Of a DNA stretch of 60,641 nt, positions 15,194 to 60,246 are shown piece by piece. The stretch lies in NCBI GenBank assembly GCA_048939265.1, contig JBHLPQ010000002.1:1-60641 (forward strand). The letters run 5' to 3'. The notes under the pieces were generated by a model. It did no database searches and had not been told where the DNA came from. It was given only the letters and a program-made list of their open reading frames with translations. The translations under genes and the position numbers were made by a program. This DNA is from Promethearchaeota archaeon. Its GTDB lineage: Archaea > Asgardarchaeota > Heimdallarchaeia > Hodarchaeales > Hodarchaeaceae. Numbering within the stretch: the stretch's first letter is position 1; every line of letters starts with the position of its first letter.

Positions 15194-15276
15194 CATCGTG
15201 AAAACATACTTGACAGAGAGGGGCTGCTATCTACCTAAAGATTTCGGGACAAATCTCAATTTCCAAATTATTAGGG
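15194..15276 (+). repeat. R element, degenerate copy
   Basis: CATCGTG..ACATACTTGA..CTACCTAAAGATTTCGGGACAAATCTCAATTTCCAAATTATTAGGG retains the inner hairpin AGATTT/AAATCT. It abuts the stop of ORF 15286-16578. Confidence 0.5.
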
Positions 15277-15285
15277 TAAAATTTT

Positions 15286-16578
15286 TCAGTTTGGAATTGG
15301 TGAAACATCACCAATGGAAGGTTCTGTCATATGTTGTTCAAGTTCAGGGAGTGTTGTCATGAACCATGAATAAGCTATTGCTATAAATCCTAACACAACA
15401 CAGCTAAAGAAGATTAAACGAATATCAAGAAATTCAGCAATAATACCAGAGAGAAGGGAAGAAACTGGAATCGTGAACCAAATTATAGTTCTTCTAACAG
15501 CAGTAAATTGACCTAATTTTTCAGGAGGGATTATCGAATGATAGAGAGTGAGAATCGTTGTGTTCAGGATAACAAGAGTTAAGCCAACAAGAGAAAAGCC
15601 AATACCTATAATGTAAAAATACTCAGAATTGGGAGGGATAATTGTTATAATCAACATTCCGATAAATATTCCGACAAAAGCTAAAATGGTGCCAAATATC
15701 TTCCTCCTGAAACCCTTCCAGACCATCATAAGGACAGATCCAGAAATATATCCTATTTGGAGAAGAACCATCATGAAAGCTATCTCATCTTTGCCTTTAG
15801 CATGCGTTTGAATGATAAACATAGGAAGAAGGACAAATAAGGGGTTGAAGAAGAAGTTCAACACAGAAAACAGGAGAACTAAGGGTAAAAGACCAGATTT
15901 GTTCAAAATAAACGAAATGCCTGCGGAAAATTCGGCTTTATAGGAGATTTTTTCCTTTTGTTCTGTTTTTTCCTTCTTGGGTGAGGGAATTTCAATGAAT
16001 AAGACTGGGAGTATTGCTAAGATAAAGGTGAGGGGATCGAGTAATAGAATTAACCGTATTTCCCAATAATTTAACAGAAAAACAGCTACTACTGGCCCGA
16101 TGACTCCACTAACCCCATCGGAAAACTGTCTGAAGCCATTGATCCGACTTAATTTACCTTTGGGCACCATTAAAGGGACGATGGCTTCTGTTGCTGGCAT
16201 GTGAAAGGCCTGTAAAACAGCCCGAGCGGCAAGAATGAGTAAAATATGGACAATTGTAACCAGTTCAGTCCAAAATAAATACACAAGAAGTAAAGTGACA
16301 AGGGCTTGAAGAGAGTCTACTATGATTATGATAGCCTTGCGATTGTAGCGATCTACAAGGACGCCGGTGAAGAGAGTAGCAACGACCATAGGTGCAAAGC
16401 CGACGAATGAAGCCAATCCAAGATAAAAGGTACTTTGATACTCGAGAGTAATCCAAAGAATGAGAACAAACTGGACGATTATTGAACCTAGCTGAGATTG
16501 CACCTGCCCAATCAAGAAGAGCAAATAACTCTTAACGTGATTCATCTCGTGAGTATTCTGGAAACTGATCCGAGACAC
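15286..16578 (-). CDS. MFS transporter
   Basis: 430 aa, ~12 TM helices; MFS motif A-like GVLVDRYNRKAIII. Confidence 0.85.
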   Translation of the reverse strand: MSRISFQNTHEMNHVKSYLLFLIGQVQSQLGSIIVQFVLILWITLEYQSTFYLGLASFVGFAPMVVATLFTGVLVDRYNRKAIIIIVDSLQALVTLLLVYLFWTELVTIVHILLILAARAVLQAFHMPATEAIVPLMVPKGKLSRINGFRQFSDGVSGVIGPVVAVFLLNYWEIRLILLLDPLTFILAILPVLFIEIPSPKKEKTEQKEKISYKAEFSAGISFILNKSGLLPLVLLFSVLNFFFNPLFVLLPMFIIQTHAKGKDEIAFMMVLLQIGYISGSVLMMVWKGFRRKIFGTILAFVGIFIGMLIITIIPPNSEYFYIIGIGFSLVGLTLVILNTTILTLYHSIIPPEKLGQFTAVRRTIIWFTIPVSSLLSGIIAEFLDIRLIFFSCVVLGFIAIAYSWFMTTLPELEQHMTEPSIGDVSPIPN

Positions 16579-16750
16579 AACCCTTTAGGACGATCAGAGA
16601 GGAGAGTTTATTGAAATTTAAGAAAGGTTATGATTTGGGCAATCTTTTTAGCTTGTGTATTTTAGGATTATTTCTCTATACATATACGCAATGGAAATTG
16701 TTCTTAGAAACACGGGAGGTCATAGAATTAGAAAGAATTCCAGAAGAATT

Positions 16751-16836
16751 AAATGAAGTTACAGAACTTTAACCAGCTGATGAAAGGATTTTGGGGAAAA
16801 TCTGATAGAAATGAGCCCGAGTGCGATTAGTGGGAG
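16751..16836 (+). repeat. R element copy
   Basis: AAATGAAGTTACAGAACTTTAACCAGCTGATGAAAGGATTTTGGGGAAAATCTGA...GAGTGCGATTAGTGGGAG. Confidence 0.75.
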
Positions 16837-16967
16837 AGACATTCTGCTTGACAATTCTTAGCTCTTCTCTTCATTATGACACATGCTGCGTATTCCTGAA
16901 ATATACCACGTCAAGAAAATTTCCAGAACAGTCTCATCAAAGATTGAAAAATCCCCTAGCTTTCCTC

Positions 16968-18434
16968 TTATTTCTTTTGTGTCTTTCTTTTGATGACACT
17001 AAGACATAGTAACATTAGGAATATCGGAACTAGGAACCAAGAGGTACTAGCTGGAGGGAGGGGTGCTGCGATATCGGGGCTATCGGGGTTAACTTTGGAG
17101 GCAAGAGGTGAGGAATCAGTATTTTCAGCAAGACCAGCAATTGCATAGGGTTTAGTTATATCAGTCCAGTCATACCAATAGTTAGATACAAAAGAATTGT
17201 TCGTACCATCATCTTTGGCGTGGCTCCACTCATTAGCAATGAAATCATTCCATTGGAAGGTGTTACCACGGCAATCAGAATCAATTGCTACTCCACGAAG
17301 ATTGAAATAAATCGAATTATTCCGAAAAAGATTATCATCGGCCCATTCCAGGAAAATACCATGGGTATTATTGTGAATTTGGTTATGTTCAATAATGCAT
17401 TCAGCGGCCTTTTCATCTACCGTTAACTCCCATCTATATCCTAGATTAAAGCCAAATTCATTATCATACAAAATATTGGATGAAACCGTGTTATTGGTTC
17501 CTTTCAGACCTATGGCAATATTATTCTGAGAAAAAATGTTTCTAGTAAGAAGGTTGTGTGAGAAAAATCTCCCCTCAATCCGAAATCCAGTTCCAAGGCT
17601 CTGAATAATATTCTCGGAAATAGTATTATATTCCGAGGTAGCCCAAAACCAGAACCCCGCACCATTCGTGTCAACGGTATCAACAATGGTATTATTGTCA
17701 ATGGTATTCCAAGAGGATAAGTAGATGGTGAGACCTGTATACCAATTATTATTAATAATATTATTGCGAATAAGATGAGATTGTGATTGGTCTAGATAAA
17801 TCCCAGATAAATAGATGTGGGGTTCATAGATACTATGCGCAGAAACCCCTGATTTTCCATTATTTGAAAGCGTATTTCCTGTTATTTCAATAGATTCTGA
17901 GAGTAATGAATATACCCCAGTAGCTTCACACTTAGTTATTATGTTGTCTGAAACTGAGGAGTTCGTCACGTTTTTCAAACGAACACCCATCCAAGTTTGT
18001 TGGATGGTATTATTCCTTATGCAAGCGTTTGTGACATTAACTAGAGAGATTCCATCGTAAAGCGAAGATAAGCCATTTAATGTTGATTCAGTTATTTTGA
18101 AATGGACATTGGTGTTCCTTATCTCTATTAAATTCACTGTATTGCTCGTAATTTCATATCCCCTGATGACATAAGGGGATGGGGCTGAACCATCTCCAGA
18201 CCACCCTTCATTCAGAGCAGTAATAGTGAAATTTTGATTGCCGTCAATGAAGATAGGATCATTAGAAGATGTCATATGGTTATCTGAAAGCTTTTGAGTG
18301 GCTACATGGCAAGAGAAAGGATTTATTGTAAGGTGTGATACATTAGTTGCTGTACTAGGAGAAGAAAAAAGAATAAGACAGACAAATACTGTTCCAAAGA
18401 GAAAGAAATAATTAGAATTCCTTTTCATATGCAA
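16968..18434 (-). CDS. Secreted/anchored right-handed beta-helix (PbH1/NosD-like) protein
   Basis: 488 aa; N-terminal signal/anchor; tandem N.I..N-type beta-helix repeats; YWYDWT motif shared with the 28507 and 53922 proteins; C-terminal TM plus KRKTQKK tail. Confidence 0.8.
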   Translation of the reverse strand: MHMKRNSNYFFLFGTVFVCLILFSSPSTATNVSHLTINPFSCHVATQKLSDNHMTSSNDPIFIDGNQNFTITALNEGWSGDGSAPSPYVIRGYEITSNTVNLIEIRNTNVHFKITESTLNGLSSLYDGISLVNVTNACIRNNTIQQTWMGVRLKNVTNSSVSDNIITKCEATGVYSLLSESIEITGNTLSNNGKSGVSAHSIYEPHIYLSGIYLDQSQSHLIRNNIINNNWYTGLTIYLSSWNTIDNNTIVDTVDTNGAGFWFWATSEYNTISENIIQSLGTGFRIEGRFFSHNLLTRNIFSQNNIAIGLKGTNNTVSSNILYDNEFGFNLGYRWELTVDEKAAECIIEHNQIHNNTHGIFLEWADDNLFRNNSIYFNLRGVAIDSDCRGNTFQWNDFIANEWSHAKDDGTNNSFVSNYWYDWTDITKPYAIAGLAENTDSSPLASKVNPDSPDIAAPLPPASTSWFLVPIFLMLLCLSVIKRKTQKK

Positions 18435-18958: not shown

Positions 18959-20074
18959 ATGAGAAAATTAATGATAGTTGAGATCGAAAATAGTTATTTA
19001 AATCTCTTCACGCCTGCAGTGATTGTGGCAGCAGGTTACTTCCTCTTCAATCTCATGTTTTGGCTTATACTTTTGATAGCGTTGTTATTGATTGATGTCG
19101 AAAATCCATTCCGAATATGGTCATTCATAACAATTTTCGCGAATTTCTCAGTGTGTGTAATTATCTATTTGATTATCATTCCAAAACTAAAAATTCGAGA
19201 TACTGAATATAAGGAAGCCACTCCGATTAACTTTGCAGTTGTGGGCCTGGTGACCTGTATGACAATTTTTTCTCAAGCGCTGTTAAAAGGCTTAGCCGAA
19301 TTGTTTGATATTGGATGGATTTATCAGTTTCCGATTCCTGAAAACCTGGAAGATCCAGCTTTTGAAATATTATACCTCTTTTTGCTGTTGATGAGTATTG
19401 CTCTTTTTACAGAGCTATTTTCTCGGCGAACAACAATCCCATTATTGGAAGATCGGGGGGTGAGGCCTGTTTATGCAGTAATATTATCGAGTCTAGGAAA
19501 TGGTCTCATCATTCTACCTTTGTATATAATCCAAATATTTCAAATACGCCTAAATATGCCATCTATGGTATTAGAATTTACTTCAATCGCCGTTTTTGGA
19601 TTTTTCGCAGGAATTACCTACATTATAACCCGAAATATCCTATTTCCTATCTTGGTTGGATTTTTATACAATTCTTATGAGATGATTGGCTTGTTAGGAA
19701 GATCGTTAGAGATTGAAATGCTAGTAACCATATTTAATCTAATATTCATCATTTCTTGTTTAGTAACCATTCTATGTGGAGTTTTTGCCATTTGGAGATT
19801 TAGAGGCAAAAACTCAGTGAATGAACTCATTAGAAAAATGAAATTGCGTTCCGCACAAAAGATTCAACGGGGAATAATAGGATTTTTCTTGATTTCCATT
19901 GGCTTGTTAGTGTTTCAAGCTCTAGCTGTTATAGTTGTTAGACATTTAACGGATAGCTGGAACAATCCAAGTAATCTATTTCCCGGGTATGTGGTAGGTA
20001 TCACAATATTTTATCTGATTGCCTCGGTTATCCCGTTCTTTTTAACGGTCTCCACGGAATATGCCCGCGATTAG
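18959..20074 (+). CDS. Polytopic membrane protein, possible CPBP (CAAX-type) intramembrane protease family
   Basis: 371 aa, >8 TM helices. FTELFSRR resembles the CPBP EExxxR motif; the family call is weak. Follows the ArsR gene by 44 nt. Confidence 0.5.
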   Translation: MRKLMIVEIENSYLNLFTPAVIVAAGYFLFNLMFWLILLIALLLIDVENPFRIWSFITIFANFSVCVIIYLIIIPKLKIRDTEYKEATPINFAVVGLVTCMTIFSQALLKGLAELFDIGWIYQFPIPENLEDPAFEILYLFLLLMSIALFTELFSRRTTIPLLEDRGVRPVYAVILSSLGNGLIILPLYIIQIFQIRLNMPSMVLEFTSIAVFGFFAGITYIITRNILFPILVGFLYNSYEMIGLLGRSLEIEMLVTIFNLIFIISCLVTILCGVFAIWRFRGKNSVNELIRKMKLRSAQKIQRGIIGFFLISIGLLVFQALAVIVVRHLTDSWNNPSNLFPGYVVGITIFYLIASVIPFFLTVSTEYARD

Positions 20075-20087
20075 AACGGGATAAGTG

Positions 20088-20137
20088 TAAAAATCTCAAG
20101 TTCCACAAGAAGTTAGCCTAGGTGCGATTAGTGGGAG
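20088..20137 (+). repeat. R element, 3' part only
   Basis: AAAAATCTCAAGTTCCACAAGAAGTTAGCCTAGGTGCGATTAGTGGGAG, between convergent genes. Confidence 0.7.
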
Positions 20138-20196: not shown

Positions 20197-21273
20197 CTAA
20201 CATCGATTGTCGCGATGAAAGAAAAGGATCACAAACAATAATCCAATGATGGATAAGAATAAACCGATTCTAATCAAAATGGGCGTGGGTCTGGTTATTG
20301 GAAAAGTTCTATCAAACTCCCAAAAGATTTCATCTTCTCCATTATCGCGGCAGGTGTTGTTAACTATAATGGAAGAGGTATATGAATAACCAAGGTAGAG
20401 GCCGTACTCATGATTGTGGTTACAGGTGTTATTGGTTACAATTGAAGAATCAGAACGGTAAAGGTAAATGCCAATCCAACCATTGTGGTTACTGGTGTTG
20501 TTGGTTACAGTCGAAGAATTAGAAAAAATAAGGTAGATACCCTGGTCATTATAGTTACAATTGTTGTTGACTACAGACGCAGCATCAGAAGAACTAACGA
20601 AAATGCCATGATTATCGTTGTGGTTGCAGGTATTATTAGCTAGATTCGAAGTTTCGGATCCTCCAAGGGAAATGCCAGATAAACTATTGTTGTTACAGGT
20701 GTTGTTGGCAACAATTGAAGAATGAGAACGAAAGAGGGATATTCCAGTCCCAACATTGCTACTGCAAGTGTTGTTAACAACAACCGAAACACTTGCAGAA
20801 GACAGGCGGATACTAGAATACCTATTGTCATTGCAGGTGTTGTTGGTAATAGTAGTTAGACCTGGGGGAACATCTTCCACAAATATACCATGGGTGTTTG
20901 AACTGCCAATGACACAATTCTCTATTCTATAATGCTTCGTTATCCCCGTGATATAAATCCCATGAACTGTAGCACCAGAAATATTCCAATTAGCAATAAT
21001 GTAAGGATCCATTGCCGTTCCTGAACCACTATTCGCCACAGCAGCTAGTTCATTATTGTTGGTAATAGCAATGGGGTCATGGTTAATGTAACGTTGTGAA
21101 ACAGATCTGTTGGCTGAATTTAACGAGGTCGATAGAGTATTTTGGTCTGGAGAGAGAGAGATGCTCAAAGTAACCAACAAAAGAGTGAATAATAATCGAA
21201 CTGCAGAAAAGCTGGTTCTCCTCCTTGACACCTTACGCATAAAGAGCATTTCTTTCCAAATATTCTGAAGCAT
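20197..21273 (-). CDS. Anchored beta-helix repeat protein (NNTCN.N repeats)
   Basis: 358 aa; signal/anchor; about ten tandem ~22-aa repeats (VVNNTCSSNVGTGISLFRSHSS...); C-terminal TM. Confidence 0.75.
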   Translation of the reverse strand: MLQNIWKEMLFMRKVSRRRTSFSAVRLLFTLLLVTLSISLSPDQNTLSTSLNSANRSVSQRYINHDPIAITNNNELAAVANSGSGTAMDPYIIANWNISGATVHGIYITGITKHYRIENCVIGSSNTHGIFVEDVPPGLTTITNNTCNDNRYSSIRLSSASVSVVVNNTCSSNVGTGISLFRSHSSIVANNTCNNNSLSGISLGGSETSNLANNTCNHNDNHGIFVSSSDAASVVNNNCNYNDQGIYLIFSNSSTVTNNTSNHNGWIGIYLYRSDSSIVTNNTCNHNHEYGLYLGYSYTSSIIVNNTCRDNGEDEIFWEFDRTFPITRPTPILIRIGLFLSIIGLLFVILFFHRDNRC

Positions 21274-26802: not shown

Positions 26803-26878
26803 TGACAGATTTGGTGCCTGAAGCCACCTGACGACCGGTCCGTGTCTTATACTCTGGAGAGAACAATTCACGTCAATC
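26803..26878 (+). repeat. R element-like, degenerate with insertion
   Basis: GACAGATTTGGTGCCTGAAGCCACCTGACGA..[insert]..GAGAGAACAATTCACGTCAATCG resembles the 46261 copy (CCTGAAGCCATCTGACGAGAGAACCATCTCAATTTCACACGG). Confidence 0.35.
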
Positions 26879-27253: not shown

Positions 27254-27325
27254 GATCTCAAGAAATAGAACATTAAACATCAGACAAAATACTCTGAGTT
27301 TAAAATCCTGAGAGGAGCTGATGTA

Positions 27326-28525: not shown

Positions 28526-29658
28526 TGGAGGATCTGAACTTGATGAGAATAAACCAGTATGGAAGACGACTAGCGATCGTGTTAGGTATCCTCTTAACCA
28601 GCGGAGTGATCGGATCAGAACCCATAGCGAGTGGGAACCCAGGGGGGGAACAAAAATATAGTGAAAAAACCATTGGAACTAGTAAACTTCACCAAATACC
28701 CCAATCTATTAGTCAAAACTTAGAACTGGTTCTTCGAAACTCCTCTATACAATACATCGAACACGAACCAATCTTCATAAATGATAACTGGAAATTTCAA
28801 GAGTGGAATGGGAGTGGAACAGAAGCAGATCCGTTTATCATAACAGGCCTTAATATCACCAGTACATCTGATTGTATATGGATTCAAAGTACAGATGTTT
28901 ACTTCCAAATAATAAATTGTATTCTAATAGGGGGAGGTGCAGTCTTCCCTGGTAGTAATGGGATTACCCTTTTTGATGTAAAAAATGGGATTATCAAAAA
29001 CAATTTCATTACCCAGCATGAGAACGCAGTTGGCCTTGGAGGAGCTAGTAACAACGTAATTACTAATAATTATCTGGTCCAAAATTTCAGAGGGGTGGGA
29101 GGTAGTGACAGTACTGATAATCTATTTGTGGAGAATACCATTCATAATTCAGAAGAAATAGGCATAAATCTAGGTGATTCGAATACAAACATAATCGCAA
29201 ACAATACGATTTCGTATAATCTGGGCCATGGGATCTTATGTGAGGGGGACTCAAATGGAAATGTCATAACATGGAATAATTTTATAGATAACAATCCCTT
29301 TGAAGCAAAACAAGTGGACGATCACAAAGGAACTAAATCGGACAATTTATTTCAGTACAACTATTGGAATGACTGGACAAGTCCAGATATAAATGAAGAT
29401 GGGATCGTAGACACCCCGTACACGTTTTGGAACTACAATCAAGATCAATTTCCATTGACGTCTCCAGCACCAGCTGCACCCAGAATTCCCGAAAAACCAG
29501 CTGGTTTTGAATCACAAAACCCTGTTAAACAGTTAGATACCTCAGCGTATGCGCGCTTAGGAATATTTTGTGGGGTGTGTGTGGTTGTGTTCGGATGGAG
29601 TATGATAGCTCTCCTCCAAAAAAGGCTCCCAAATTCACTTGAAGCAAACGACTCCTGA
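28507..29658 (+). CDS. Secreted/anchored beta-helix (NosD-like) protein
   Basis: 383 aa in the track; likely start is ATG 28525 (TAATG overlap with the upstream stop) or 28543. NYWNDWTSPDINEDGIVDTPY motif as in the 53922 protein; C-terminal TM. The last ~22 nt and the stop lie inside an R copy. Confidence 0.8.
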   Translation: MGEIFLMEDLNLMRINQYGRRLAIVLGILLTSGVIGSEPIASGNPGGEQKYSEKTIGTSKLHQIPQSISQNLELVLRNSSIQYIEHEPIFINDNWKFQEWNGSGTEADPFIITGLNITSTSDCIWIQSTDVYFQIINCILIGGGAVFPGSNGITLFDVKNGIIKNNFITQHENAVGLGGASNNVITNNYLVQNFRGVGGSDSTDNLFVENTIHNSEEIGINLGDSNTNIIANNTISYNLGHGILCEGDSNGNVITWNNFIDNNPFEAKQVDDHKGTKSDNLFQYNYWNDWTSPDINEDGIVDTPYTFWNYNQDQFPLTSPAPAAPRIPEKPAGFESQNPVKQLDTSAYARLGIFCGVCVVVFGWSMIALLQKRLPNSLEANDS

Positions 29659-29743
29659 ATCTATCTAACGAAAGATTTTTTCCGAAAAATCTCGCTTTCC
29701 ACCTGTTTTCGCAAAAATTAGCTCAGATGCATTAGTGGGGGAG
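29637..29743 (+). repeat. R element copy overlapping the 3' end of ORF 28507-29658
   Basis: CACTTGAAGCAAACGACTCCTGAATCTATCTAACGAAAGATTTTTTCCGAAAAATCTCGCTTTCCACC...GATGCATTAGTGGGGGAG. Confidence 0.8.
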
Positions 29744-29804
29744 AATTATCCAACCATAATATTTTTAATACTGTACTACATGTATATACAATAGGGGTCA
29801 TATA

Positions 29805-30062
29805 ATGGCTAATATCAGTGTACGCGTCGATGCAAAAATGAAGAAAGAAATGGAGCGTCTAAAGCAAGTAAATTGGAGTGAAGTGATCAGAGTAGCGATA
29901 AAAGAGCGCCTCGATCAGGAAAAACAAAAAAATCTTGCAAAGGCAGTTTTAATTAACGAAAAAATCCGTAAAAAAGCCCCAAGCGGATATGATAGTACAA
30001 GGATCATTCGAGAATGGAGAGATCGGAGAAGTCAGAGCACTGAAGGGTCGACAGGAGGGTGA
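29805..30062 (+). CDS. vapB: VapB-type antitoxin
   Basis: 85 aa; 4-nt overlap (GTGA) with the downstream PIN gene; paralog of 60347-60598 (shared NWSEV.R.A...R). Confidence 0.7.
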   Translation: MANISVRVDAKMKKEMERLKQVNWSEVIRVAIKERLDQEKQKNLAKAVLINEKIRKKAPSGYDSTRIIREWRDRRSQSTEGSTGG

Positions 30063-30517
30063 AACAGATACAAAAAATAGTCGTAGATGCAAGTCTAGTG
30101 GTAAAGTGGTTCATAAGCGAAGAATACAGTAATCTAGCTCTAGAAATTAGAGACCATTTTGTTGAAGGGCAAATAGAGTTGTATGCGCCTAATCTATTGC
30201 ATTATGAGGTGCTGAATGCACTAAAATACAGTAATTTATTCTCTCGGGAGAACCTAGCAGATGCAGTCACCTCATTAGAAAATTATGGGATTATTCAATT
30301 ACCATTAAACGGAGAATATGCACAAAAAACAATGCAACTAGCAGTGGAACAGAACATCTCCATCTATGATGCAGCATATGTGAGTTTAACCGATGTCATG
30401 GGAATTATCGCCTATTCAGCAGATAAAAAATTAGTGGATACAGTGCAAAAAGACTATGGAAAGGCCTTCTTGTTCATTACACTCCTAGAGGAGAAGAATG
30501 AAAAACCTGTCACCTAA
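30059..30517 (+). CDS. vapC: PIN-domain toxin VapC
   Basis: 152 aa; N-terminal IVVDASLVVKWF PIN signature with acidic residues downstream. The stop TAA lies in the ACCTAA variant of the R motif ACCTGA. Confidence 0.85.
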   Translation: MKQIQKIVVDASLVVKWFISEEYSNLALEIRDHFVEGQIELYAPNLLHYEVLNALKYSNLFSRENLADAVTSLENYGIIQLPLNGEYAQKTMQLAVEQNISIYDAAYVSLTDVMGIIAYSADKKLVDTVQKDYGKAFLFITLLEEKNEKPVT

Positions 30518-30562
30518 AAATCTCAATTTCTAATCAAGTCACCCAGGTGTGATTAGTGGGAG
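30509..30562 (+). repeat. R element, 3' part (inner hairpin deleted)
   Basis: CACCTAAAAATCTCAATTTCTAATCAAGTCACCCAGGTGTGATTAGTGGGAG. Confidence 0.7.
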
Positions 30563-32589: not shown

Positions 32590-32647
32590 TTTCGATTCGT
32601 TCTGATAGAGGATAACAACTACTCAATGCCTAAACGATTAGTGAGAG
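32590..32647 (+). repeat. R element-like, short degenerate
   Basis: TTTCGATTCG...ACTCAATGCCTAAACGATTAGTGAGAG; the end resembles GCGATTAGTGGGAG. Confidence 0.3.
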
Positions 32648-33061: not shown

Positions 33062-33150
33062 GACAGACATCAGACCACTGGCACTCTACTTGAAGCACAC
33101 GACTCCTTAACGCAAAATGACGAGAGGGCCATCTCAATTTCCACACGGTT
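33062..33150 (+). repeat. R element copy (short-3'-end variant)
   Basis: GACAGACATCAGACCACTGGCACTCTACTTGAAGCACACGACTCCTTAACGCAAAATGACGAGAGGGCCATCTCAATTTCCACACGGTT. CTTAAC..GTTAAG is a terminal inverted repeat. Confidence 0.85.
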
Positions 33151-34879: not shown

Positions 34880-35128
34880 TTATCGATTCTCTGCCCCTTC
34901 TTTCTTAGGTGGATAACAAGCCTCACACGCTAAATTTAAGCATTTAATTTTCTCTCTACTCCGGTTTCTAAAAAATACCTTAAATCTAGTTCCACAGAAT
35001 AAGCATTCTTGGCGCCTATCCCACCCTCTTTGAGAAATTAAGGTAATACAGAACTCACACGTGTATCTGTAACAGCGAGCACACTGAAGAAGAAAATCAT
35101 CCCTTCCACAGATCTGACACTGATTCAT
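34880..35128 (-). CDS. Small CxxC zinc-finger protein
   Basis: 82 aa; CQICG, CARC, CEFC, CLFCG and CEAC pairs. Confidence 0.55.
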   Translation of the reverse strand: MNQCQICGRDDFLLQCARCYRYTCEFCITLISQRGWDRRQECLFCGTRFKVFFRNRSREKIKCLNLACEACYPPKKEGAENR

Positions 35129-35236
35129 ATTTCCTTTCTTCTATATCTCCGACGAAATTTCTTTCTCATAATTAAAGGGACTTAGGGGAATAAAAGGCTA
35201 TCTCGAGAATCTCTCCGAGTAGCTAAAGAAATATAC

Positions 35237-35434: not shown

Positions 35435-35800
35435 ACTCAGAGTACTAGACAAGGCTTCTCAGCTATGTGTAGCTCCACAATCCACTTCCTTATATTTCCT
35501 CCGAAACGCAAGAACAGTGGGCATGTGTTAAGAAAATGACCTAAGGTTTCATAAACGAGTGGGGGGTAACTTTATATTCAATAAAACCCTAAAGAATCAG
35601 GGGATTCTTCAAGAGGTTTCATGATGAAAGAGCGTGAAAGCAAAGAAAAGGATATTGTCGTAGAAGGGACAGTCATTGACAACCCCCTTTTCGGGGTGCA
35701 TATAATCACAAAACTACGCATTATTTTTTAACACAAGCCAGGTGTATAATGAAACGTTACAGTTCGGATTCAATTCCCCTTACTAGACGAACTATCCTCA

Positions 35801-35906
35801 TATCAGACCAACTACTCTCTACTTCAAGTATACGACTCCTTCAAGCTATTTGACGAAAAAACCATCTCATTTTCTAATCAAATCGCCCTGGTGCGATTAG
35901 TGGGAG
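35801..35906 (+). repeat. R element copy
   Basis: TATCAGACCAACTACTCTCTACTTCAAGTATACGACTCCTTCAAGCTATTTGACGAAAAAACCATCTCATTTTCTAATCAAATCGCCCTGGTGCGATTAGTGGGAG. Confidence 0.85.
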
Positions 35907-35955
35907 AAATTATCTGGGTTATAGGTTCGAGGGATAGAAGGACTTATATACTTCT

Positions 35956-36372
35956 ATGCATCGAATATCTATGTATCTTGAAAGGATAGATTTCAAGAAG
36001 GAATCTATGATGTCTCTTGAGAAACGACTTGAGAATGAAGTCACAGCTAATTTAATCACATTTCTTATTCTTAAATGTATCCAACAGCACAGTAAATCAT
36101 ATGGCTACCAAATGAAGAAGTATATTCAAGAGTATACAGGAAAATCTATCCCAGAAGGAACACTTTACCCCATTCTAAGTAAATTAGGAGATAAAAAGCC
36201 TCCCCGATATGGATATCTACGATCATTTAGAGAGGAAGTACAAGGAGGACGAAAGCGGAGATACTATCAGCTGACGGAACGCGGGAAGGCACAATTGAAA
36301 ATCTGGCCCAATAAATGGCTTGAATTAAACGATTTCGTCCAAGCGATCCTTAAGCGTCTCAATTCGGAGTAG
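35956..36372 (+). CDS. PadR-family transcriptional regulator
   Basis: 138 aa; SYGYQMKKYIQEYTGKSIPEGTLYPILSKL signature. Confidence 0.85.
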   Translation: MHRISMYLERIDFKKESMMSLEKRLENEVTANLITFLILKCIQQHSKSYGYQMKKYIQEYTGKSIPEGTLYPILSKLGDKKPPRYGYLRSFREEVQGGRKRRYYQLTERGKAQLKIWPNKWLELNDFVQAILKRLNSE

Positions 36373-36385
36373 GAAGGATGATAAA

Positions 36386-38185
36386 ATGACTGACCTCATT
36401 AAAAAATATTTAAATCAAATTGAAGAAATATTAAAGGACAAATCGATTCCCCCTGAATATATTGAGGAGTTTATCGACAATTTGGCTGACCAACTGACTA
36501 CCATGGTGGAGGAAACCCAAGAAAAAGAACCAACATTGAGTCTAGAAGATGTTGAAGTAAGAGTCTTAACCCAATGTGAACCCGTTGAAAAAGTCATTGA
36601 ACGGGTAACACAAGAACTGAAAACTGAGGAATCATGGATCACCGCAGAACGGGTTAGTGATGTCAAATTTCTTCGCCCATTTGAAACTCTTATCCTCTCA
36701 ATCGTAAATAAGCTTGATCGGGGATTAATTTTCTGTGAAAAACATTTCCGTAGGTTTTCAAGCTGGTATGAAAAACATGAGAACCCTGTGTTTACTAGTA
36801 TTGCTTTTTTTCTTGCAATCGCAGCTTCAACTATTGTATTCGGCCTTATTTTGGCCCTTCTCCCTTCTCTTTGGCAGACAACGACTTTTCCTGACAATAG
36901 GACTTATTTTACTCTTAATGCACCAGCAGAACATGCTATGGATCAACCGAATATCACAGGTGCGAGTATAATGGAGGTCTCCCAAATTTTTAAAATCACC
37001 TTATTACTCTTGTTAATTTTCCTTGTCATCGGATTGATCGGTTGGAGATATTCCTATAGGTATGCCCTGATGAGTGGAGCCCTTCTTAGTCTTCTTATCG
37101 GTTTGTTATGGACATTCATGTCACAAGATACAAGATTGTGGCCAATTTCAAATCGAATCATTTACGAAGATAGGTGGACTTTTACTTCTGATTGGGTGAG
37201 AACAGTCCCCCCAACACTTAATGATTTCACTAGTTTTGTTTTAAATTCCATTATTTCGTATTGGTTCTATTTCATCACATTGATTCTCCTCTTAATCTCA
37301 GCTGGTTTTCTACTAAAGCAAATAATTAAGAGAAAAGAAAGAACTAGTCAGCCCTATCATCTAAATACACTATTGAAGATTGGATTATTACTAGGCTGTT
37401 TAATGATAGGATTCATAATCCCACAACCAAAACCTCTAAGGTTATTCCCCTCCAAGGTTATTCCTATTCCAACAACAGATGAACCACTTTTGTATAAGTT
37501 TGATATAGATTGGACAGCTGTGTACCAAAGCAGGGGATATTCTGAAGAATATTTAACTAGACTTAAGGAGTTTGGAGACCTAGGTTTTTATTTTTATGAA
37601 TATTTCAACTTCTCATTATCCGAAGTAAATTCAGAGAACCCCGACCTTAGAAGTGAAGGAGCTTTCACGCCAATTCTCACAAAGGATGAGGAGCCGTCTA
37701 TCTCTTCTCAACGACCATTTAAATTGCTAGGACTCCTACATCTTCCTAATCAATTCAATGGCCTGACCGTTCAAGAGATTATCACTATTCATCTGAATGA
37801 CTCTTACCCTTTCCGTGGATTCACCCCCTCAATTGATAACACAATCAAGAATATTGAATGGCACGTCAATGGAACAGAACATAACCTAACTGTAAATACG
37901 ATAAAGTATAGCTCAACAACAAATGGATCAGAATATCTCTTCTCCTTTGATCGAGCAACTGGGTGGTTAATGAAGGCAGAATTGACAAAAACCAATGATA
38001 CATGGGTAACTAGCTTAGAATTGGAAACGCTGACAATTACCAGAAGTTTTACTTATAATCGAATAGCGAATCCTGAAGATTACTATAATCTTGACAATCT
38101 TATACTGATGATGTCTCTCCTGGGAACTGGACTAGTGTTTCTCTTCTGTGAAGGATTCTACTTTGTGACCCAGAAAAAAAAATAA
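36386..38185 (+). CDS. PadR-associated membrane protein (DUF1700-like N-terminus)
   Basis: 599 aa; N-terminal helical KKYLNQIEEILKD...EEFIDNLADQL, then multiple TM helices and a large extracytoplasmic domain; 13 nt after the PadR gene. Confidence 0.7.
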   Translation: MTDLIKKYLNQIEEILKDKSIPPEYIEEFIDNLADQLTTMVEETQEKEPTLSLEDVEVRVLTQCEPVEKVIERVTQELKTEESWITAERVSDVKFLRPFETLILSIVNKLDRGLIFCEKHFRRFSSWYEKHENPVFTSIAFFLAIAASTIVFGLILALLPSLWQTTTFPDNRTYFTLNAPAEHAMDQPNITGASIMEVSQIFKITLLLLLIFLVIGLIGWRYSYRYALMSGALLSLLIGLLWTFMSQDTRLWPISNRIIYEDRWTFTSDWVRTVPPTLNDFTSFVLNSIISYWFYFITLILLLISAGFLLKQIIKRKERTSQPYHLNTLLKIGLLLGCLMIGFIIPQPKPLRLFPSKVIPIPTTDEPLLYKFDIDWTAVYQSRGYSEEYLTRLKEFGDLGFYFYEYFNFSLSEVNSENPDLRSEGAFTPILTKDEEPSISSQRPFKLLGLLHLPNQFNGLTVQEIITIHLNDSYPFRGFTPSIDNTIKNIEWHVNGTEHNLTVNTIKYSSTTNGSEYLFSFDRATGWLMKAELTKTNDTWVTSLELETLTITRSFTYNRIANPEDYYNLDNLILMMSLLGTGLVFLFCEGFYFVTQKKK

Positions 38186-38232
38186 TTATAAGAGGAGACC
38201 AAGAAATTATCAAAATTGTCAAACATAAACGA

Positions 38233-38290
38233 TTATTGAAAGCCATCTGACGAAAGATTTTTCGGGGAAAAATCTCAAGTTCTATAAACT
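38233..38290 (+). repeat. R element, central part
   Basis: TTATTGAAAGCCATCTGACGAAAGATTTTTCGGGGAAAAATCTCAAGTTCTATAAACT, between convergent genes. Confidence 0.65.
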
Positions 38291-39111: not shown

Positions 39112-39207
39112 TACAAACATCAGATCGTTTGTTCGCTACTTGAAGCACACGACTCCTTAAACAAACTGACGAAAGATTTTTTGGGAAAAGCTCACTTTCC
39201 ACACGGG
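39112..39207 (+). repeat. R element copy (short-3'-end variant)
   Basis: TACAAACATCAGATCGTTTGTTCGCTACTTGAAGCACACGACTCCTTAAACAAACTGACGAAAGATTTTTTGGGAAAAGCTCACTTTCCACACGGGTAG; abuts the stop of ORF 39213-39599. Confidence 0.85.
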
Positions 39208-39212
39208 TAGTA

Positions 39213-42442: not shown

Positions 42443-42497
42443 GTACCTGACGCTAGTTCCACTCAATTTCCAATCAAGTCGCCCTTGTGTGGAGTCC
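42425..42497 (+). repeat. R element copy (5' part shortened, 3' end degenerate)
   Basis: ACGTACTTGGGGTATAACGTACCTGACGCTAGTTCCACTCAATTTCCAATCAAGTCGCCCTTGTGTGGAGTCC is near-identical in its centre to the 49724 copy. Confidence 0.65.
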
Positions 42498-43715: not shown

Positions 43716-43786
43716 ACTCAGAGCACTATTATTTTTACCACTACCAGGGGGACACATGGGTTTATAAAAAAAAGAATGTGATCATA

Positions 43787-44512: not shown

Positions 44513-44564
44513 AATTGAAGCTGAAAAAATTAAACTGAAATATGACTTGGTGCATTAGTGGGAG
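44513..44564 (+). repeat. R element, compressed copy overlapping the stop of ORF 44555-46189
   Basis: AATTGAAGCTGAAAAAATTAAACTGAAATATGACTTGGTGCATTAGTGGGAG. Confidence 0.6.
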
Positions 44565-46260: not shown

Positions 46261-46329
46261 TTCGTGTAATTGAAGTACACGACTCCTGAAGCCATCTGAC
46301 GAGAGAACCATCTCAATTTCACACGGTTA
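46261..46329 (+). repeat. R element copy (lacks 5' head; short-3'-end variant)
   Basis: TTCGTGTAATTGAAGTACACGACTCCTGAAGCCATCTGACGAGAGAACCATCTCAATTTCACACGGTTA. Confidence 0.8.
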
Positions 46330-46348
46330 GCCTTTGTCAGGGGTATGC

Positions 46349-48098: not shown

Positions 48099-48160
48099 GA
48101 CAAACATCAGACCGCTACTCGGGTAATTGAAGCTCCTGACTCCTTAGGCTATCTGAAGCC
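48099..48160 (+). repeat. R element, 5' part only
   Basis: GACAAACATCAGACCGCTACTCGGGTAATTGAAGCTCCTGACTCCTTAGGCTATCTGAAGCC. Confidence 0.7.
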
Positions 48161-49723: not shown

Positions 49724-49833
49724 GACAGACATCAAACCGTTGCTCGTGTAATTGAAGTTCCTGACTCCTTAACGCTACCTGACGATAGTTCCACTCAATT
49801 TCCAATCAAGTCGCCCAGGTGCAATTAGTGGGA
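49724..49833 (+). repeat. R element, full-length copy (AT inner hairpin replaced)
   Basis: GACAGACATCAAACCGTTGCTCGTGTAATTGAAGTTCCTGACTCCTTAACGCTACCTGACGATAGTTCCACTCAATTTCCAATCAAGTCGCCCAGGTGCAATTAGTGGGA. Confidence 0.9.
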
Positions 49834-50105
49834 AAAATCAAATCAGAAATTAATCTAGTCTATTGACTAGAATTAAACCAATTTGTTCTGAGAACATTAA
49901 TTTGATTCCACGATCCAAGACTATTTAAAATCGCAAATTCAGGGAGACCTGAAAAAGAGCTGCTGATATTGAGGAAACACAACTGCCTCGCAGATTAAGA
50001 AGCCCTCAAATACTCCGAAGTCCGTATACTCCAAGATCTAGCCAGGGAAAGTCAATTCTCTTAACTGCGATTCCTGCTCCGACACAAAAATTACAACTGA
50101 TCGCC

Positions 50106-50834
50106 TTGACGTGGGATCTCCTGCGAAGTGGAATATTCGTTGTCTGGGTAATTGGGACAATCCTAAGCGTGATGTTTACTCCATGGATTCAAGATAATCT
50201 GCTACTTCCAGATACTTCAGCATATCTAGCGACTGAAAATATCACCTTAAAGTATGATCATTTCTGGTGTGAACCAGAGACCGATTTATCATTCTCTCGG
50301 GGGGACATACTAAGGATAACTTGGGTAGCAAATGGAACCATCGACTTTTACATATTGGATTACGAAAATCTGTGCGAATTTGAACAAGAAGATAATCGAT
50401 TACTTAAGAAATTTCAAACCCTATTCGAAGTAAAAGGGGAAAAGAACCTAACAACTGAGATTCAAGTGACAGAAACCGCAAGATACTATCTTGTATGGCA
50501 TTACTCACACGAAAACGCAATTAAAAACTCAGAACATGATATAGATCTCAGCTTCACAATTCAATTTCCTCCCAGCTCAAAAACTGTCATTTCACCGTTG
50601 TTGATTCTGATTGGTTTCTGTTTAATTACCTATTTTATGGTAATTCTGGTAGTCTTTGTGAAGAAATTTGCCCTCTCTCCTGTGCCCAAAGATTTAGAGG
50701 AGGAAAGAGAACCGAAGAAGGATGAGAAACGAATTCAAGAACCCCAATTATGCCCCAATTGCTATACAATAGTGCTTGGGAACGAAACGTGTTGTTCTAA
50801 ATGCGGGAGAAATACGTTCTTAGAGGACTCCTAG
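50106..50834 (+). CDS. Membrane protein with C-terminal zinc ribbon
   Basis: 242 aa (TTG start); two TM helices; CPNC...CSKCG. The terminal GAC TCC TAG lies inside the R copy. Confidence 0.7.
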   Translation: MTWDLLRSGIFVVWVIGTILSVMFTPWIQDNLLLPDTSAYLATENITLKYDHFWCEPETDLSFSRGDILRITWVANGTIDFYILDYENLCEFEQEDNRLLKKFQTLFEVKGEKNLTTEIQVTETARYYLVWHYSHENAIKNSEHDIDLSFTIQFPPSSKTVISPLLILIGFCLITYFMVILVVFVKKFALSPVPKDLEEEREPKKDEKRIQEPQLCPNCYTIVLGNETCCSKCGRNTFLEDS

Positions 50835-50921
50835 AGTCGGAACCTAGAACCCAGAACTGACATTGAAGTTCGGAAAAAATTTCAAGTTCCACTCAAGTTA
50901 CCCTGGTGTGATTAGTAGGAG
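50824..50921 (+). repeat. R element copy overlapping the stop of ORF 50106-50834
   Basis: AGGACTCCTAGAGTCGG...ACTGACATTGAAGTTCGGAAAAAATTTCAAGTTCCACTCAAGTTACCCTGGTGTGATTAGTAGGAG. Confidence 0.75.
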
Positions 50922-51513: not shown

Positions 51514-51635
51514 GACAGACATCAGATCATATGCTCCTTTAATTGAAGCACACGACTCCTTAACGCTACCTGACGAAAGATTTTTGGAACAAATCTCACT
51601 TTCCAATCAAGGCGCCCTGGTGCGATGAGTGGGAG
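51514..51635 (+). repeat. R element, full-length reference copy
   Basis: GACAGACATCAGATCATATGCTCCTTTAATTGAAGCACACGACTCCTTAACGCTACCTGACGAAAGATTTTTGGAACAAATCTCACTTTCCAATCAAGGCGCCCTGGTGCGATGAGTGGGAG. Confidence 0.95.
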
Positions 51636-51879: not shown

Positions 51880-52335
51880 GTGGTAGAAGGAATCCCCTTA
51901 AACACACCAACTGTTAGTCTGGTACATATGATCAAGATAACAAAGGACAATCCAATTTTCATACCATCCAAATTCGTTGAAAACCTCAGGTTAAAGGACA
52001 AGGAAGAAGAATGGGCTGTTATGATCTTTACTTCCCCCTGTACATCAAAAATAATTAGGGTTATATCCACGAAGAGTCCAATGGTAATTAAAGTCTTCAT
52101 TGAGTGGAGCCAAACTGGACCAGACACACTACACGAGCTCGGAGTAGTTTATATGAGAAATAACATTAAAACCCTGTATAGTACATCGATATGTTTCTGT
52201 GGACATATACCCCCCCATCTTTATGAAGGGTATATCGATTCGTGTGATTTGCCTATCTCCGAAGATCAATTAAAATCAGAATTATTAGCTCTCCCCAATG
52301 CTACAAAGGTAAGGTTAACACAATACTCGTTGTAA
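51880..52335 (+). CDS. Hypothetical protein (possible SpoVT/AbrB-like N-terminus)
   Basis: 151 aa in the track; ATG 51928 (MIKITKDNP) is a plausible start. IFIPSKFVENLRLKDKEE resembles the AbrB-type motif; this is weak. Confidence 0.45.
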   Translation: MVEGIPLNTPTVSLVHMIKITKDNPIFIPSKFVENLRLKDKEEEWAVMIFTSPCTSKIIRVISTKSPMVIKVFIEWSQTGPDTLHELGVVYMRNNIKTLYSTSICFCGHIPPHLYEGYIDSCDLPISEDQLKSELLALPNATKVRLTQYSL

Positions 52336-52364: not shown

Positions 52365-52449
52365 GTACAAACATCAGACCGATACTCGTTTACTTGAAGC
52401 ACCTGACTCCTTCAAGCTACCTGACGAAAGAACCATCCCACTTTCCACA
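52365..52449 (+). repeat. R element copy (short-3'-end variant)
   Basis: GTACAAACATCAGACCGATACTCGTTTACTTGAAGCACCTGACTCCTTCAAGCTACCTGACGAAAGAACCATCCCACTTTCCACA; abuts the stop of ORF 52462-53487. Confidence 0.85.
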
Positions 52450-52461
52450 ATTTTTTTTAAC

Positions 52462-53608: not shown

Positions 53609-53728
53609 GACAGACATCAGACGGCTGGCGCTCTACTTGAAGCTGGGGACTCCTTACAGCTACCTGACGAAAGATTTTTGGAAAAATCTCACTTTCCACT
53701 CAAGGCGCCCTGGTGCGATTAGTGGGAG
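53609..53728 (+). repeat. R element, full-length reference copy
   Basis: GACAGACATCAGACGGCTGGCGCTCTACTTGAAGCTGGGGACTCCTTACAGCTACCTGACGAAAGATTTTTGGAAAAATCTCACTTTCCACTCAAGGCGCCCTGGTGCGATTAGTGGGAG. Inner hairpin is AGATTTTT (53672-53679) / AAAAATCT (53682-53689). Confidence 0.95.
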
Positions 53729-59494: not shown

Positions 59495-59647
59495 AGTCTA
59501 GACGGTGATTTGTAATGACGATTCTGAAAAATAGACTAAACTTACCGTCATTTGTTGGTAATGTGTCTTTCTTCTTCTTCATATCACTTATTTTGTGCTC
59601 TTGAACTATATCAAGGTTTCTTGTTATACTTTTCTTTGCACAAAGCA

Positions 59648-59712
59648 TACAGACATCAGATCATTTGCTCTCTACTTGAAGTCAACGGTTCCTTAAGCCA
59701 GTAGTGGCGAGA
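59648..59712 (+). repeat. R element copy with internal deletion (5' part fused to a 3'-end-like AGTAGTGGCGAG)
   Basis: TACAGACATCAGATCATTTGCTCTCTACTTGAAGTCAACGGTTCCTTAAGCCAGTAGTGGCGAGA; abuts the stop of ORF 59714-60115. Confidence 0.7.
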
Positions 59713-59713
59713 T

Positions 59714-60115
59714 TTAGCTTACAACATACCCAATCGAAAAGTAAAACTGGGAATAGGTGAAGTAATTATCTTCAATAAGGGATTGGATACGATTCCATTC
59801 CTCCTGGGGAGTTTCTAAAAGCACACTGCTTTCATGAGTCGGGGGGTCGATTAAGAAAGTGATAGCTTGGTACAGAGTAGGATAATCGGTGAAATCTAGG
59901 TGAGTAATATTCAGAAAGGGATGGAGAAGAGCAGCCACTTCGTCTTCAGAGAGGAGCTCGACATCGATACCATAATAGACGGTTTCCCCAACAAAACAGC
60001 CAGATAAAAGAAATATACCGATCAGGAAAACCCCAACGAGAGAATGAGTGGAAGAAAAGAGAGGGAGAGACACAAAATTATCTTCCTTGCCATCCTCAGA
60101 GGGCATGGTATTCAC
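59714..60115 (-). CDS. Lipoprotein-like small secreted protein, paralog of 34445-34825
   Basis: 133 aa; TM/signal with Cys; shared NITHLDFTDYPTLYQAITFLIDP...FTYSQFYFSIGYVVS. Confidence 0.7.
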   Translation of the reverse strand: MNTMPSEDGKEDNFVSLPLFSSTHSLVGVFLIGIFLLSGCFVGETVYYGIDVELLSEDEVAALLHPFLNITHLDFTDYPTLYQAITFLIDPPTHESSVLLETPQEEWNRIQSLIEDNYFTYSQFYFSIGYVVS

Positions 60116-60154
60116 CGAAAGTTGAAAAAAAGCGTTTGCTGTAGCGACAAATTT

Positions 60155-60246
60155 CTACTACATCCCAGTATAAAAACTATCTGACGAAAGATTTTGGGAA
60201 CAAATTTCACTTTTCAATCAAGTCGCCTGGGTGCGATTAGTGGCAG
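60155..60246 (+). repeat. R element copy (5' part degenerate)
   Basis: ...CTATCTGACGAAAGATTTTGGGAACAAATTTCACTTTTCAATCAAGTCGCCTGGGTGCGATTAGTGGCAG. Confidence 0.8.

Follow-up and report, generated by a model that had tools for sequence, protein, structure and literature searches.

Integrons are, to our knowledge, the only well-understood system in which single-gene cassettes are stored and shuffled, and they depend on attC hairpins and the integrase IntI. An attC site is made of imperfect inverted repeats (R''-L''...L'-R'), through which the bottom strand forms a hairpin with extrahelical bases, and crossover takes place at G|TT. A cluster of attC sites that lacks an integrase is called a CALIN. 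Integrons have been reported in metagenome-assembled genomes (MAGs) of Asgard archaea, where the attC sites are reported to fold like bacterial ones (Ghaly et al. 2022, PMC9668308). The stretch described here is a 60,641-nt piece of a Promethearchaeota archaeon (the window; assembly GCA_048939265.1, contig JBHLPQ010000002.1, positions 1 to 60,641). It contains an intergenic repeat, here called R, that marks cassette boundaries in variable chromosomal arrays of Hodarchaeales-type Asgard archaea. Cassettes in these arrays have been reshuffled between genomes with their orientation preserved. R is not an attC, REP, PATE or MITE element.

Copies of R in the window were located with an iterated nhmmer profile, seeded from four full copies and run on both strands at a threshold of E<0.01. 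Nineteen significant copies were found, and all 19 lie on the forward strand (two-sided P 3.8e-6); no reverse-strand match in the window was better than E ~10. There are also four decayed remnants, again all on the forward strand. A repeat search of the window recovered the family without supervision, as several overlapping direct-repeat families, and found no inverted counterparts. Only four of the copies are full length (those starting at 35800, 49726, 51516 and 53611); the others are listed with them in Table 1. Between 29.6 and 60.2 kb the mean spacing is 2.0 kb if significant copies alone are counted and 1.8 kb with two remnants. The G+C content of the window is 37.5%.

The profile search thus confirms the central claim of a first-pass annotation of this DNA, namely that a strand-polarised intergenic repeat divides an accessory region into units of one to three genes. 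The consensus given there was correct, and the copy at 51514-51635 reads as claimed. Of 20 starts called clear, 19 are forward copies within ~40 nt of the profile starts; the remaining one, 44513, scores under the profile threshold, yet inspection by eye shows a forward copy with an internal deletion, ATTGAAGC...TTGGTGCATTAGTGGGAG, at 44514-44564. Weak copies suspected at 26803 and 32590 are genuine forward remnants. A third, at 23445, is instead part of a separate repeat (23394-23465 = 42374-42445), the tail of a cassette that carries a gene of the P family described below, and possible copies at 121-160 and 4680-4715 are unsupported even at E=200. A sub-family was said to end early in TTTCCACACGGTTAG; in other genomes the segment usually reads TTTCCACACGGTTAG, and GCCCTTGTGCGATTAGTGG comes after it, and the window copies that have it are merely truncated shortly afterwards. 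The close approach of R to minus-strand stop codons holds, with seven copies at 0-19 nt from such a stop.

R is ~115 nt long, or ~140 nt counting a purine-rich 5' flank. Alignment of copies from nine sources reveals six conserved blocks (CAGACATCAGACC; TTGAAGC; GACTCCTnAAGC; CTGACGAnAG; CTCAATTTCCA; GCCCTGGTGCGATTAGTGGGAG) separated by spacers of variable length, and the upstream flank contains a loosely conserved purine-rich tract, CCCAAAA...AGCGKA. Two short A/T palindromes within R, AGATTTTnnAAAATCT and AATTTTnnnnAAAATT, are optional, and the variants are mosaic: presence and absence of the palindromes occur in all four combinations. Among 19 full copies from the nine sources, 26 columns are invariant and a further 22 are at least 90% conserved. 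Because these blocks persist in a family whose mean pairwise identity is ~71%, the conservation points to sequence-specific constraint and not to recent copying.

The history of the copies agrees with this. No pair in the window is more than 85% identical, and copies can keep orthologous positions across genomes that are 83-90% identical, where they decay by deletion. Together with the low mean identity, this shows that R is not a recently active mobile repeat. For 10 of the 19 window copies the nearest relative is another window copy, and a window-specific subfamily can be recognized (ATCAAGTCGCC / TTAACGC variants). Strong concerted evolution was rejected, since identity within genomes (0.73) barely differs from that between genomes (0.71). 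A split-site model, in which a cassette is enclosed by a 5' part and a complementary 3' part, was also rejected, as adjacent partial copies are not complementary by coordinates.

R is non-coding and has no conserved secondary structure. Folded as single-stranded DNA, four full copies have z-scores of -0.6 to +0.8 on both strands relative to shuffled sequences, and RNAalifold places no pairs on 14 copies. The best candidate stem, GACTCC.../...GGGAGTC, is paired at 65.9%, compared with 66.9% in shuffles, and shows no covariation. The only inverted repeat in the consensus, CATCAGA/TCTGACG, has its halves 54 nt apart and likewise does not covary. For these two helices, the best that were picked by hand, pairing does not exceed that of column-shuffled controls, and compensatory changes are absent. 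Rfam gives no match at the gathering threshold, nor at E<=1 over four copies, and no consistent promoter lies upstream. R as a coding remnant was considered and rejected: one frame of the consensus is open, but none is open through 19 full copies, and the differences in spacer length are not multiples of three. The analogy with attC, REP or PATE elements mobilised as single-stranded DNA, drawn in the first-pass annotation, requires a hairpin and fails for lack of one.

Outside the window, the search for R comprised a protein-anchored scan, a scan of JGI metagenomes and two exact-pattern scans over 185,579 species genomes. It recovered R solely from the Hodarchaeales-type Asgard lineage, and the closest relatives of the window are MAGs labelled Promethearchaeota, Hodarchaeota or 'Heimdallarchaeota'. 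The sources of R are Heimdallarchaeota bin6 (CP070695.1) and bin272 (CP070760.1), Hodarchaeota WORE3, YT1_021, YT5_056 and CSMAG_10, and Promethearchaeota DZ3S.51 and DZ2M.341, along with low-GC metagenome contigs. Matches in high-GC sequences consist of the search pattern alone, or at most of a short marginal profile match over it. R is absent from the viral contigs of IMG/VR, where sixteen 16-mer matches occur by chance and without a profile match; on this result a viral or plasmid origin was rejected. It is also absent at the corresponding locus in three more distant relatives (L037-L039).

The single polarity of R extends to these genomes. The 15 independent multi-copy loci, which represent at least 8 genomes or metagenomes, hold 70 copies; within each locus every copy points the same way (log10 P = -16.6), and the spacing is 0.5-3 kb. 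In bin6 the exact patterns match one 8-kb stretch of a 4.9-Mb chromosome (2 and 1 matches, locus L002). A full R in the same, nominally complete chromosome (L002 2484-2702) ends exactly at a scaffold gap of 100 N, and a second gap follows 5 kb on; R arrays may break or mis-join the assemblies of these genomes.

The polarity of R is independent of the genes beside it. For 71 non-redundant copies, the right neighbour is a forward gene in 35 cases and a reverse gene in 31, and the left neighbour in 35 and 33. With the two strands nearly equal, the polarity cannot be a consequence of transcription direction. R is found in convergent, divergent and tandem gaps alike. Truncated copies tend to lie close against stop codons (median 16-33 nt). 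A rule that truncated ends always face stops was rejected: the effect is weak for 5' ends (17 vs 8; intact ends, 18 vs 25), and 3' ends do not show it.

Structural variation bounded by R, on whose absence between relatives the first-pass annotation would have given up its view, is found. Relatives of the window differ in cassette content and order, with cassettes sitting exactly between R copies and some breakpoints inside R. Three shared blocks (29757-30480, 35936-38181 and 49899-50850) each fit exactly between two copies, with a TATA box at the start and a stop codon at the end. The first, the toxin-antitoxin cassette VapBC-1, is 84% identical to L012 2425-3146 in bin272, where its neighbours are different. 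The second, encoding a PadR regulator and a 599-aa membrane protein (PadR-599), is 80% identical from TATA box to stop codon to L036 11901-14132 in bin6, where it directly follows an FGGY-kinase gene. The third, called 50106 after its gene, is 78% identical to L036 336-1284 in bin6, on the other side of the same anchor genes and with its orientation kept. A cassette for a Zn/Cys protein has 82%-identical counterparts at L010 15482-15820 and L015 5200-5542; the surroundings there are different, and the orientation is again the same.

The left end of VapBC-2 is identical in three unrelated contexts: the window, L006 (99.1%) and L010/L028 (90.5-91.6%). The only other segment common to L006 and the window is 71% identical, as against 99% for VapBC-2. 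Downstream of this cassette, L005 and L010 have a 5'-truncated R in common.

The order of cassettes can be compared around fixed points, the syntenic left part of the window described below and an anchor, a saccharopine-dehydrogenase/FGGY-kinase gene pair at 23.9-26.7 kb that is 90% identical in bin6 and DZ3S.51. The order is 888aa, 95aa, anchor, 33789, Zn, PadR-599, 50106, VapBC-2 in the window; 50106, anchor, PadR-599, 95aa, P, 33789 in bin6; 95aa, 33789, anchor in DZ3S.51; and VapBC-2, Zn, 888aa in WORE3. Orientation relative to R is nevertheless kept in 37 of 37 best high-scoring segment pairs of at least 150 nt with 20 other loci, 28 of them in the array zone. The only inverted match in any comparison is a secondary one, to an 85-nt promoter fragment that is itself duplicated in inverted form within the window. 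Its two copies, 35146-35230 and 51803-51887, are 71% complementary and correspond to the region upstream of the Zn-protein gene; the matching segment of L015 is 81% identical to the second, inverted copy (51803-51887).

Breakpoints inside R can be located in two comparisons. Homology with L023, at 94% identity, starts just 5' of TTGGTGC(G)ATTAGTGGGAG (GGTGCGATTAGTGGGAG), inside the R remnant at 44514..44564, and homology with L031, at 91% identity, ends inside R at about position 41.

Synteny with four relatives extends over the left 14.5 kb of the window (a P gene, a HerA-like ATPase, a second P gene, SatD and others). This conserved block (1-14600), syntenic in contigs of DZ3S.51, TANS21 and WORE3, forms an R-free left border of the array. 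Its genes encode P, a convergent HerA/DUF87 ATPase (2039-4183), the second P, a 130-aa membrane protein, a SatD-like helix-turn-helix protein and a 224-aa protein. The 888-aa protein encoded at 10474-13140 recurs as a cassette inside arrays in L010, L020 and L035.

Table 1. Copies and remnants of R, and cassettes shared with other genomes, in the window. Model positions are those of the R profile; stop codons and genes are given with their strand.
Feature	Positions	Strand	Evidence and remarks
R, internal part, model 47-93	15225..15272	+	nhmmer E 4e-6; ends 14-18 nt before stop of MFS gene 15286-16578 (-); orthologue at L008 18220-18270
R without 5' module, model 23-115	16749..16836	+	nhmmer E 2e-10; decayed orthologous remnant in corresponding intergenic gap of L008
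R, 3' module only, 70-115	20088..20137	+	nhmmer E 2e-8; repeat family D7; 14 nt past stop of gene 18959-20074 (+)
Decayed R remnant, CCTGAAGCCACCTGACGA, blocks 3-4	26814..26841	+	nhmmer E 0.3; read by eye
R 5' module remnant, AACATCAGACAAAATACTCTGAGTTTAAAATCCTGA	27274..27311	+	exposed by comparison with L031; cut at ~model position 41 by next gene; orthologous to complete 5' part of R at L031 1371
R, 22-115	29634..29741	+	nhmmer E 1e-16; overlaps end of gene 28507-29658 (+); VapBC-1 cassette comes next
VapBC-1 cassette (RHH antitoxin and PIN toxin, own TATA box)	29757..30480	+	exactly between two R copies
R, 3' module only, 69-115	30511..30562	+	nhmmer E 4e-11; begins at VapC stop codon
Decayed R remnant, CTGATAGAGGA...CGATTAGTGAGAG	32601..32647	+	by eye; under profile threshold
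R without 3' block, 1-92	33064..33150	+	nhmmer E 5e-19
Zn/Cys-protein cassette, stop codon to promoter	34883..35225	-	homology with L010, L015
R, full length	35800..35906	+	nhmmer E 9e-25
PadR and 599-aa membrane-protein cassette	35936..38181	+	exactly between two R copies
R truncated on both sides, 35-88	38228..38286	+	nhmmer E 2e-8; between two converging stop codons
R without 3' block, 1-95	39114..39210	+	nhmmer E 1e-21; 3 nt before stop of gene 39213-39599 (-)
R, internal/3' part, 51-106	42444..42491	+	nhmmer E 2e-7
Internally deleted R remnant	44514..44564	+	by eye; 3' block adjoins stop of WD40 gene 44555-46189 (-)
R, 19-103	46262..46337	+	nhmmer E 3e-14; 12 nt before stop of gene 46349-47746 (-)
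R, 5' half only, 1-59	48101..48158	+	nhmmer E 2e-11
R, full length	49726..49834	+	nhmmer E 9e-28
Membrane/Zn-ribbon protein cassette (gene 50106-50834 and upstream region)	49899..50850	+	exactly between two R copies
R, 3' module only, 64-115	50868..50921	+	nhmmer E 3e-10; 17-19 nt before stop of Ras-family GTPase gene (-; Pfam Ras)
R, full length, with optional palindrome AGATTTTTGGAACAAATCT	51516..51635	+	nhmmer E 1e-31
R without 3' block, 1-89	52368..52450	+	nhmmer E 6e-18; 12 nt before stop of gene 52462-53487 (-)
R, full length	53611..53728	+	nhmmer E 5e-33
R, 5' part, 1-80	59650..59721	+	nhmmer E 2e-12; overlaps stop of gene 59714-60115 (-)
R, 3' part, 46-114	60173..60246	+	nhmmer E 5e-16; 3' of it, ~60 nt with another decayed R fragment, GGATTCCTC (junction comparison)
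VapBC-2 cassette, left end GAAAGGTAATATTTTTAAG	60304..60641	+	runs past window end

Co-orientation that does not depend on genes, conservation of blocks, position at boundaries and reshuffling that preserves orientation together argue for a directional role of R at the level of DNA. The explanation we tentatively prefer, while placing it somewhat short of probable, is that R is a directional double-stranded site that allows cassettes to be exchanged without a change of orientation, by way of a factor acting in trans. A protein encoded outside the arrays would recognize the blocks in double-stranded DNA. Recombination between two direct copies could then move, delete or insert whole cassettes, with R as the predicted crossover substrate; the partner copy could also lie on incoming or excised DNA. 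The enzyme might be a site-specific recombinase, or the exchange might proceed by homologous or microhomology-mediated recombination of the host. Copies beside long-resident cassettes would decay by truncation and deletion. Since all copies are direct repeats, recombination between them leaves the orientation of a cassette unchanged, which would account for arrays that differ in gene order from relative to relative but never in orientation with respect to R. Direct-repeat recombination, whether site-specific or assisted by homology, is the simplest way to move segments while preserving polarity.

Several observations weigh against this explanation. Copies of R that are ~71% identical offer homologous recombination a poor substrate. 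Breakpoints fall at several positions in R (~41, 50, 78, 89, 96) and do not define a single crossover point. Moreover, a breakpoint can persist only where intergenic DNA is non-essential, and such DNA consists here largely of R; breakpoints in R are thus partly expected through survivorship. The same cassettes have nothing but decayed remnants of R beside them in bin6, and most copies are truncated; R is therefore not needed to hold a cassette in place. No excision product or strain-level polymorphism has been directly observed. Finally, neither the window nor ~350 kb of related array loci contains an integrase, resolvase, transposase or HUH enzyme among the matches listed in the batch Pfam scans (25 most frequent families).

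The search for an enzyme covered ~125 proteins from the window and 20 loci, scanned against Pfam, and the precomputed Pfam annotations of the fetched loci. Among the families listed, the former gave no match to Phage_integrase, Y1_Tnp or another recombinase family, and the latter gave no recombination enzyme; the absence of an integrase or Y1 transposase noted earlier for the window extends to related loci.

A family of unassigned proteins, here called P, accompanies R. The window encodes five paralogues of ~510 aa, all on the forward strand (231-1841, 5332-6867, 21502-23040, 30711-32315 and 40475-42016), and P genes are always co-oriented with R in six genomes. The family has no Pfam entry and is confined to Asgard MAGs, with 34 clusters among 5.8 billion. 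Its AlphaFold model (pLDDT 92) has a weak best match in the PDB, the siroheme decarboxylase NirDL (TM 0.31/0.46), whose fold combines a winged helix-turn-helix (wHTH) with ferredoxin-like repeats of the Lrp/AsnC type. P could bind DNA; its only ties to R are co-occurrence and shared orientation. P as the recombinase was rejected, as the model has no recombinase or nuclease fold and no PDB sequence match was found. A conserved stretch of ~130-400 nt lies 3' of P paralogues in several genomes (23337-23465, 42291-42445, L041 2323-2489, L042 1830-2223) and probably contains a small open reading frame (ORF) with its own ribosome-binding site.

The main rival to a recombination site is a boundary element for gene expression or chromosome organisation: an insulator to which a protein binds, or a bidirectional terminator, separating cassettes that are transcribed independently. 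The binder could be the wHTH-like P family, whose genes co-occur with R and share its orientation. Arrays would grow by duplication and ordinary illegitimate recombination, and breakpoints would fall in R merely because it is dispensable DNA between genes, in keeping with their variable positions. The conserved blocks do resemble protein-binding sites, every type of intergenic gap holds R, truncated copies adjoin stop codons and orthologous copies persist between species. Runs of T are an archaeal termination signal; the minus strand has a T-rich tract immediately beyond the 5' end of R, and the palindromes give T runs on both strands. However, a terminator or insulator should follow the direction of genes or be symmetric, whereas the polarity of R is uniform over more than 45 kb regardless of them. 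The rival also leaves unexplained the 37 of 37 segments that keep their orientation and the loss of either half in most copies, and in bin6 the same cassettes function with R remnants only. On balance a boundary element seems rather doubtful.

R could also be a decayed non-autonomous mobile element (MITE, PATE or SINE-like) that formerly inserted between genes with a strand preference derived from replication direction, with co-orientation reflecting location on one replichore. Strand-specific insertion is known for IS200/IS605-type elements and provides a precedent. Many copies are partial, a window-specific subfamily exists, 10 of the 19 window copies have another window copy as nearest relative, and more distant relatives (L037-L039) do not have R at the locus. 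Such an element is nonetheless improbable. R has no terminal inverted repeats, subterminal hairpins or target-site duplication, and its copies are never near-identical (window maximum 85%, mean 71%) but keep their positions across species that are 83-90% identical. The scanned proteins of the window and arrays include no transposase, R is missing from viral contigs, and it is concentrated in arrays, such as the one 8-kb stretch of the bin6 chromosome. The comparison with GC skew suggested in the first-pass annotation yields no clear signal across the window.

A structured non-coding RNA gene or part of one (a small RNA, a riboswitch-like leader, or the guide or scaffold of a mobile-element nuclease) would suit the ~115-nt size, conserved ends and single polarity of R, which are those of a transcribed unit, yet it is very unlikely in view of the negative Rfam, RNAalifold, fold z-score and covariation results, the lack of a consistent upstream promoter and the loss of one end or the other from most copies. 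That R is attC and the region a canonical integron array or CALIN is scarcely credible: co-oriented sites 0.5-3 kb apart, cassettes of one to three genes, toxin-antitoxin cassettes and the report of integrons in Asgard MAGs (PMC9668308) speak for it, but archaeal attC sites fold and R does not, its ends lack the RYYYAAC/GTTRRRY core pair, the cassettes have promoters and run in both directions, and the scanned proteins include no IntI.

The cargo of the arrays, according to the Pfam scans, comprises Ras/Arf/Roc/Rag GTPases, PIN toxins, HEPN-NT pairs, NosD, WD40, Kelch and PadR proteins and assorted enzymes. Within the window are genes for a Ras-family GTPase, VapBC pairs, PadR regulators and surface proteins of the NosD/beta-helix type. 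Toxin-antitoxin pairs of the VapBC and HEPN-NT kinds lie within arrays, as they do in sedentary integrons. Small GTPase genes (Ras/Arf/Roc/Rag-like) are recurrent in R-bounded cassettes, with 5 of 60 array ORFs scanned; they are seen at 50938-51459 (-) in the window and in L013, L014, L015, L032 and L010. Their recurrence as cargo implies that the GTPase expansion of this lineage sits partly in variable arrays.

Other repeats in the window are associated with genes. Six tandem or near-tandem units of 69 nt (20384-20849) lie inside a reverse-strand gene for a NosD/beta-helix surface protein (20197-21273) and correspond to 23-residue beta-helix turns with an NNTCNxN motif. A 198-nt direct repeat, 76% identical, occurs at 35250-35447 and 43531-43728; the second copy is the C-terminal end of ORF 42972-43715, and the first falls within a short ORF (35237-35434) that resembles a gene fragment stranded next to a cassette. 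Two small paralogous proteins, secreted or anchored in the membrane, are encoded in different cassettes of one array (34445-34825 and 59714-60115, both on the reverse strand) and have the motif ...NITHLDF..YPTLY.AIT.L.DP... in common.

If R is a recombination site, single transcription units such as small GTPases, surface proteins and toxin-antitoxin pairs could be captured, reordered and passed between species with their polarity fixed. A cassette array with asymmetric, unstructured sites and no linked integrase would indicate a second, independent solution to the storage and shuffling of cassettes. Hodarchaeales are the archaeal lineage considered closest to eukaryotes; their genomes are unusual for an expanded set of Ras/Arf/Rag-type GTPases and for surface proteins, and both are among the cargo. 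With R there is a concrete marker by which the variable gene pool of Hodarchaeales MAGs can be searched. Even as a boundary or terminator, a protein-binding module of 115 nt whose polarity stays uniform for tens of kilobases would be a new kind of feature in archaeal chromosomes. A search of the literature found no description of the repeat.

Several known systems can be compared with R arrays. A CRISPR array was rejected, since its repeats of 25-40 nt are separated by spacers of 25-50 nt, whereas R is ~115 nt long and its copies are 0.5-9.5 kb apart with genes between them. MITEs have terminal inverted arms, a flanking target-site duplication and recent copies that are nearly identical; R has neither such arms nor a duplication, and the identity of R copies in the window is at most 85%. 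REP/BIME (RAYT) and PATE or IS200-IS605 repeats are, like R, intergenic, ~100 nt long and multi-copy, and can be strand-biased. They are defined, however, by palindromic hairpins, a conserved flanking tetranucleotide and a Y1 HUH transposase (RAYT/TnpA), whereas R has no hairpin, nearby enzyme or recent copies, is confined to cassette arrays and has A/T palindromes that are optional and internal.

Tandem accretion at an att site leaves co-oriented partial copies of the target between inserts, which would explain copies of R that consist of a 5' or a 3' part only. Partial copies of R do not form complementary attL/attR pairs, though, no tRNA or gene target and no integrase are present, and the units are single transcription units without mobility genes. 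A tRNA or integrative-element target was rejected, as the window has no tRNA gene. In pdif/Xer modules (Acinetobacter plasmids; IMEX arrays at dif), short double-stranded sites flank discrete gene modules, often toxin-antitoxin pairs in differing contexts, and the recombinase is encoded elsewhere. A pdif site is 28 bp long, with two inverted 11-bp arms around a 6-bp spacer, and alternates in orientation; R is ~115 nt, asymmetric and always direct, and its consensus has no Xer-type dyad.

The closest comparison is with integron and CALIN arrays such as the VCR superintegron of Vibrio. Integrons differ from R arrays in having an imperfect-palindrome hairpin with R''/R' core sites and a single crossover point; R begins with CAGACATCAGACC and ends with GCGATTAGTGGGAG, which do not form a RYYYAAC/GTTRRRY pair. 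Integron cassettes are mostly promoterless and co-oriented, whereas R cassettes have their own promoters and occur in both orientations. No IntI or attI is found at R arrays, in the window or in related loci, and R copies within a genome are barely more alike than those of different genomes. It is conceivable, if on the unlikely side, that R arrays are a hairpin-independent cassette-exchange system, an independently evolved functional analogue of integrons in which R would be recognized by a lineage-specific protein, perhaps the Asgard-only P family or an unlinked recombinase. In both, co-oriented repeats of ~60-130 nt at roughly kilobase spacing separate unrelated accessory cassettes of one to three genes, including toxin-antitoxin pairs. 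In both, cassette content and order vary between relatives, and the downstream repeat can travel with its cassette, as in VapBC-2. R arrays fall outside integrons and CALINs on every feature by which membership is judged at the sequence level, and at the large scale they are integron/CALIN-like.

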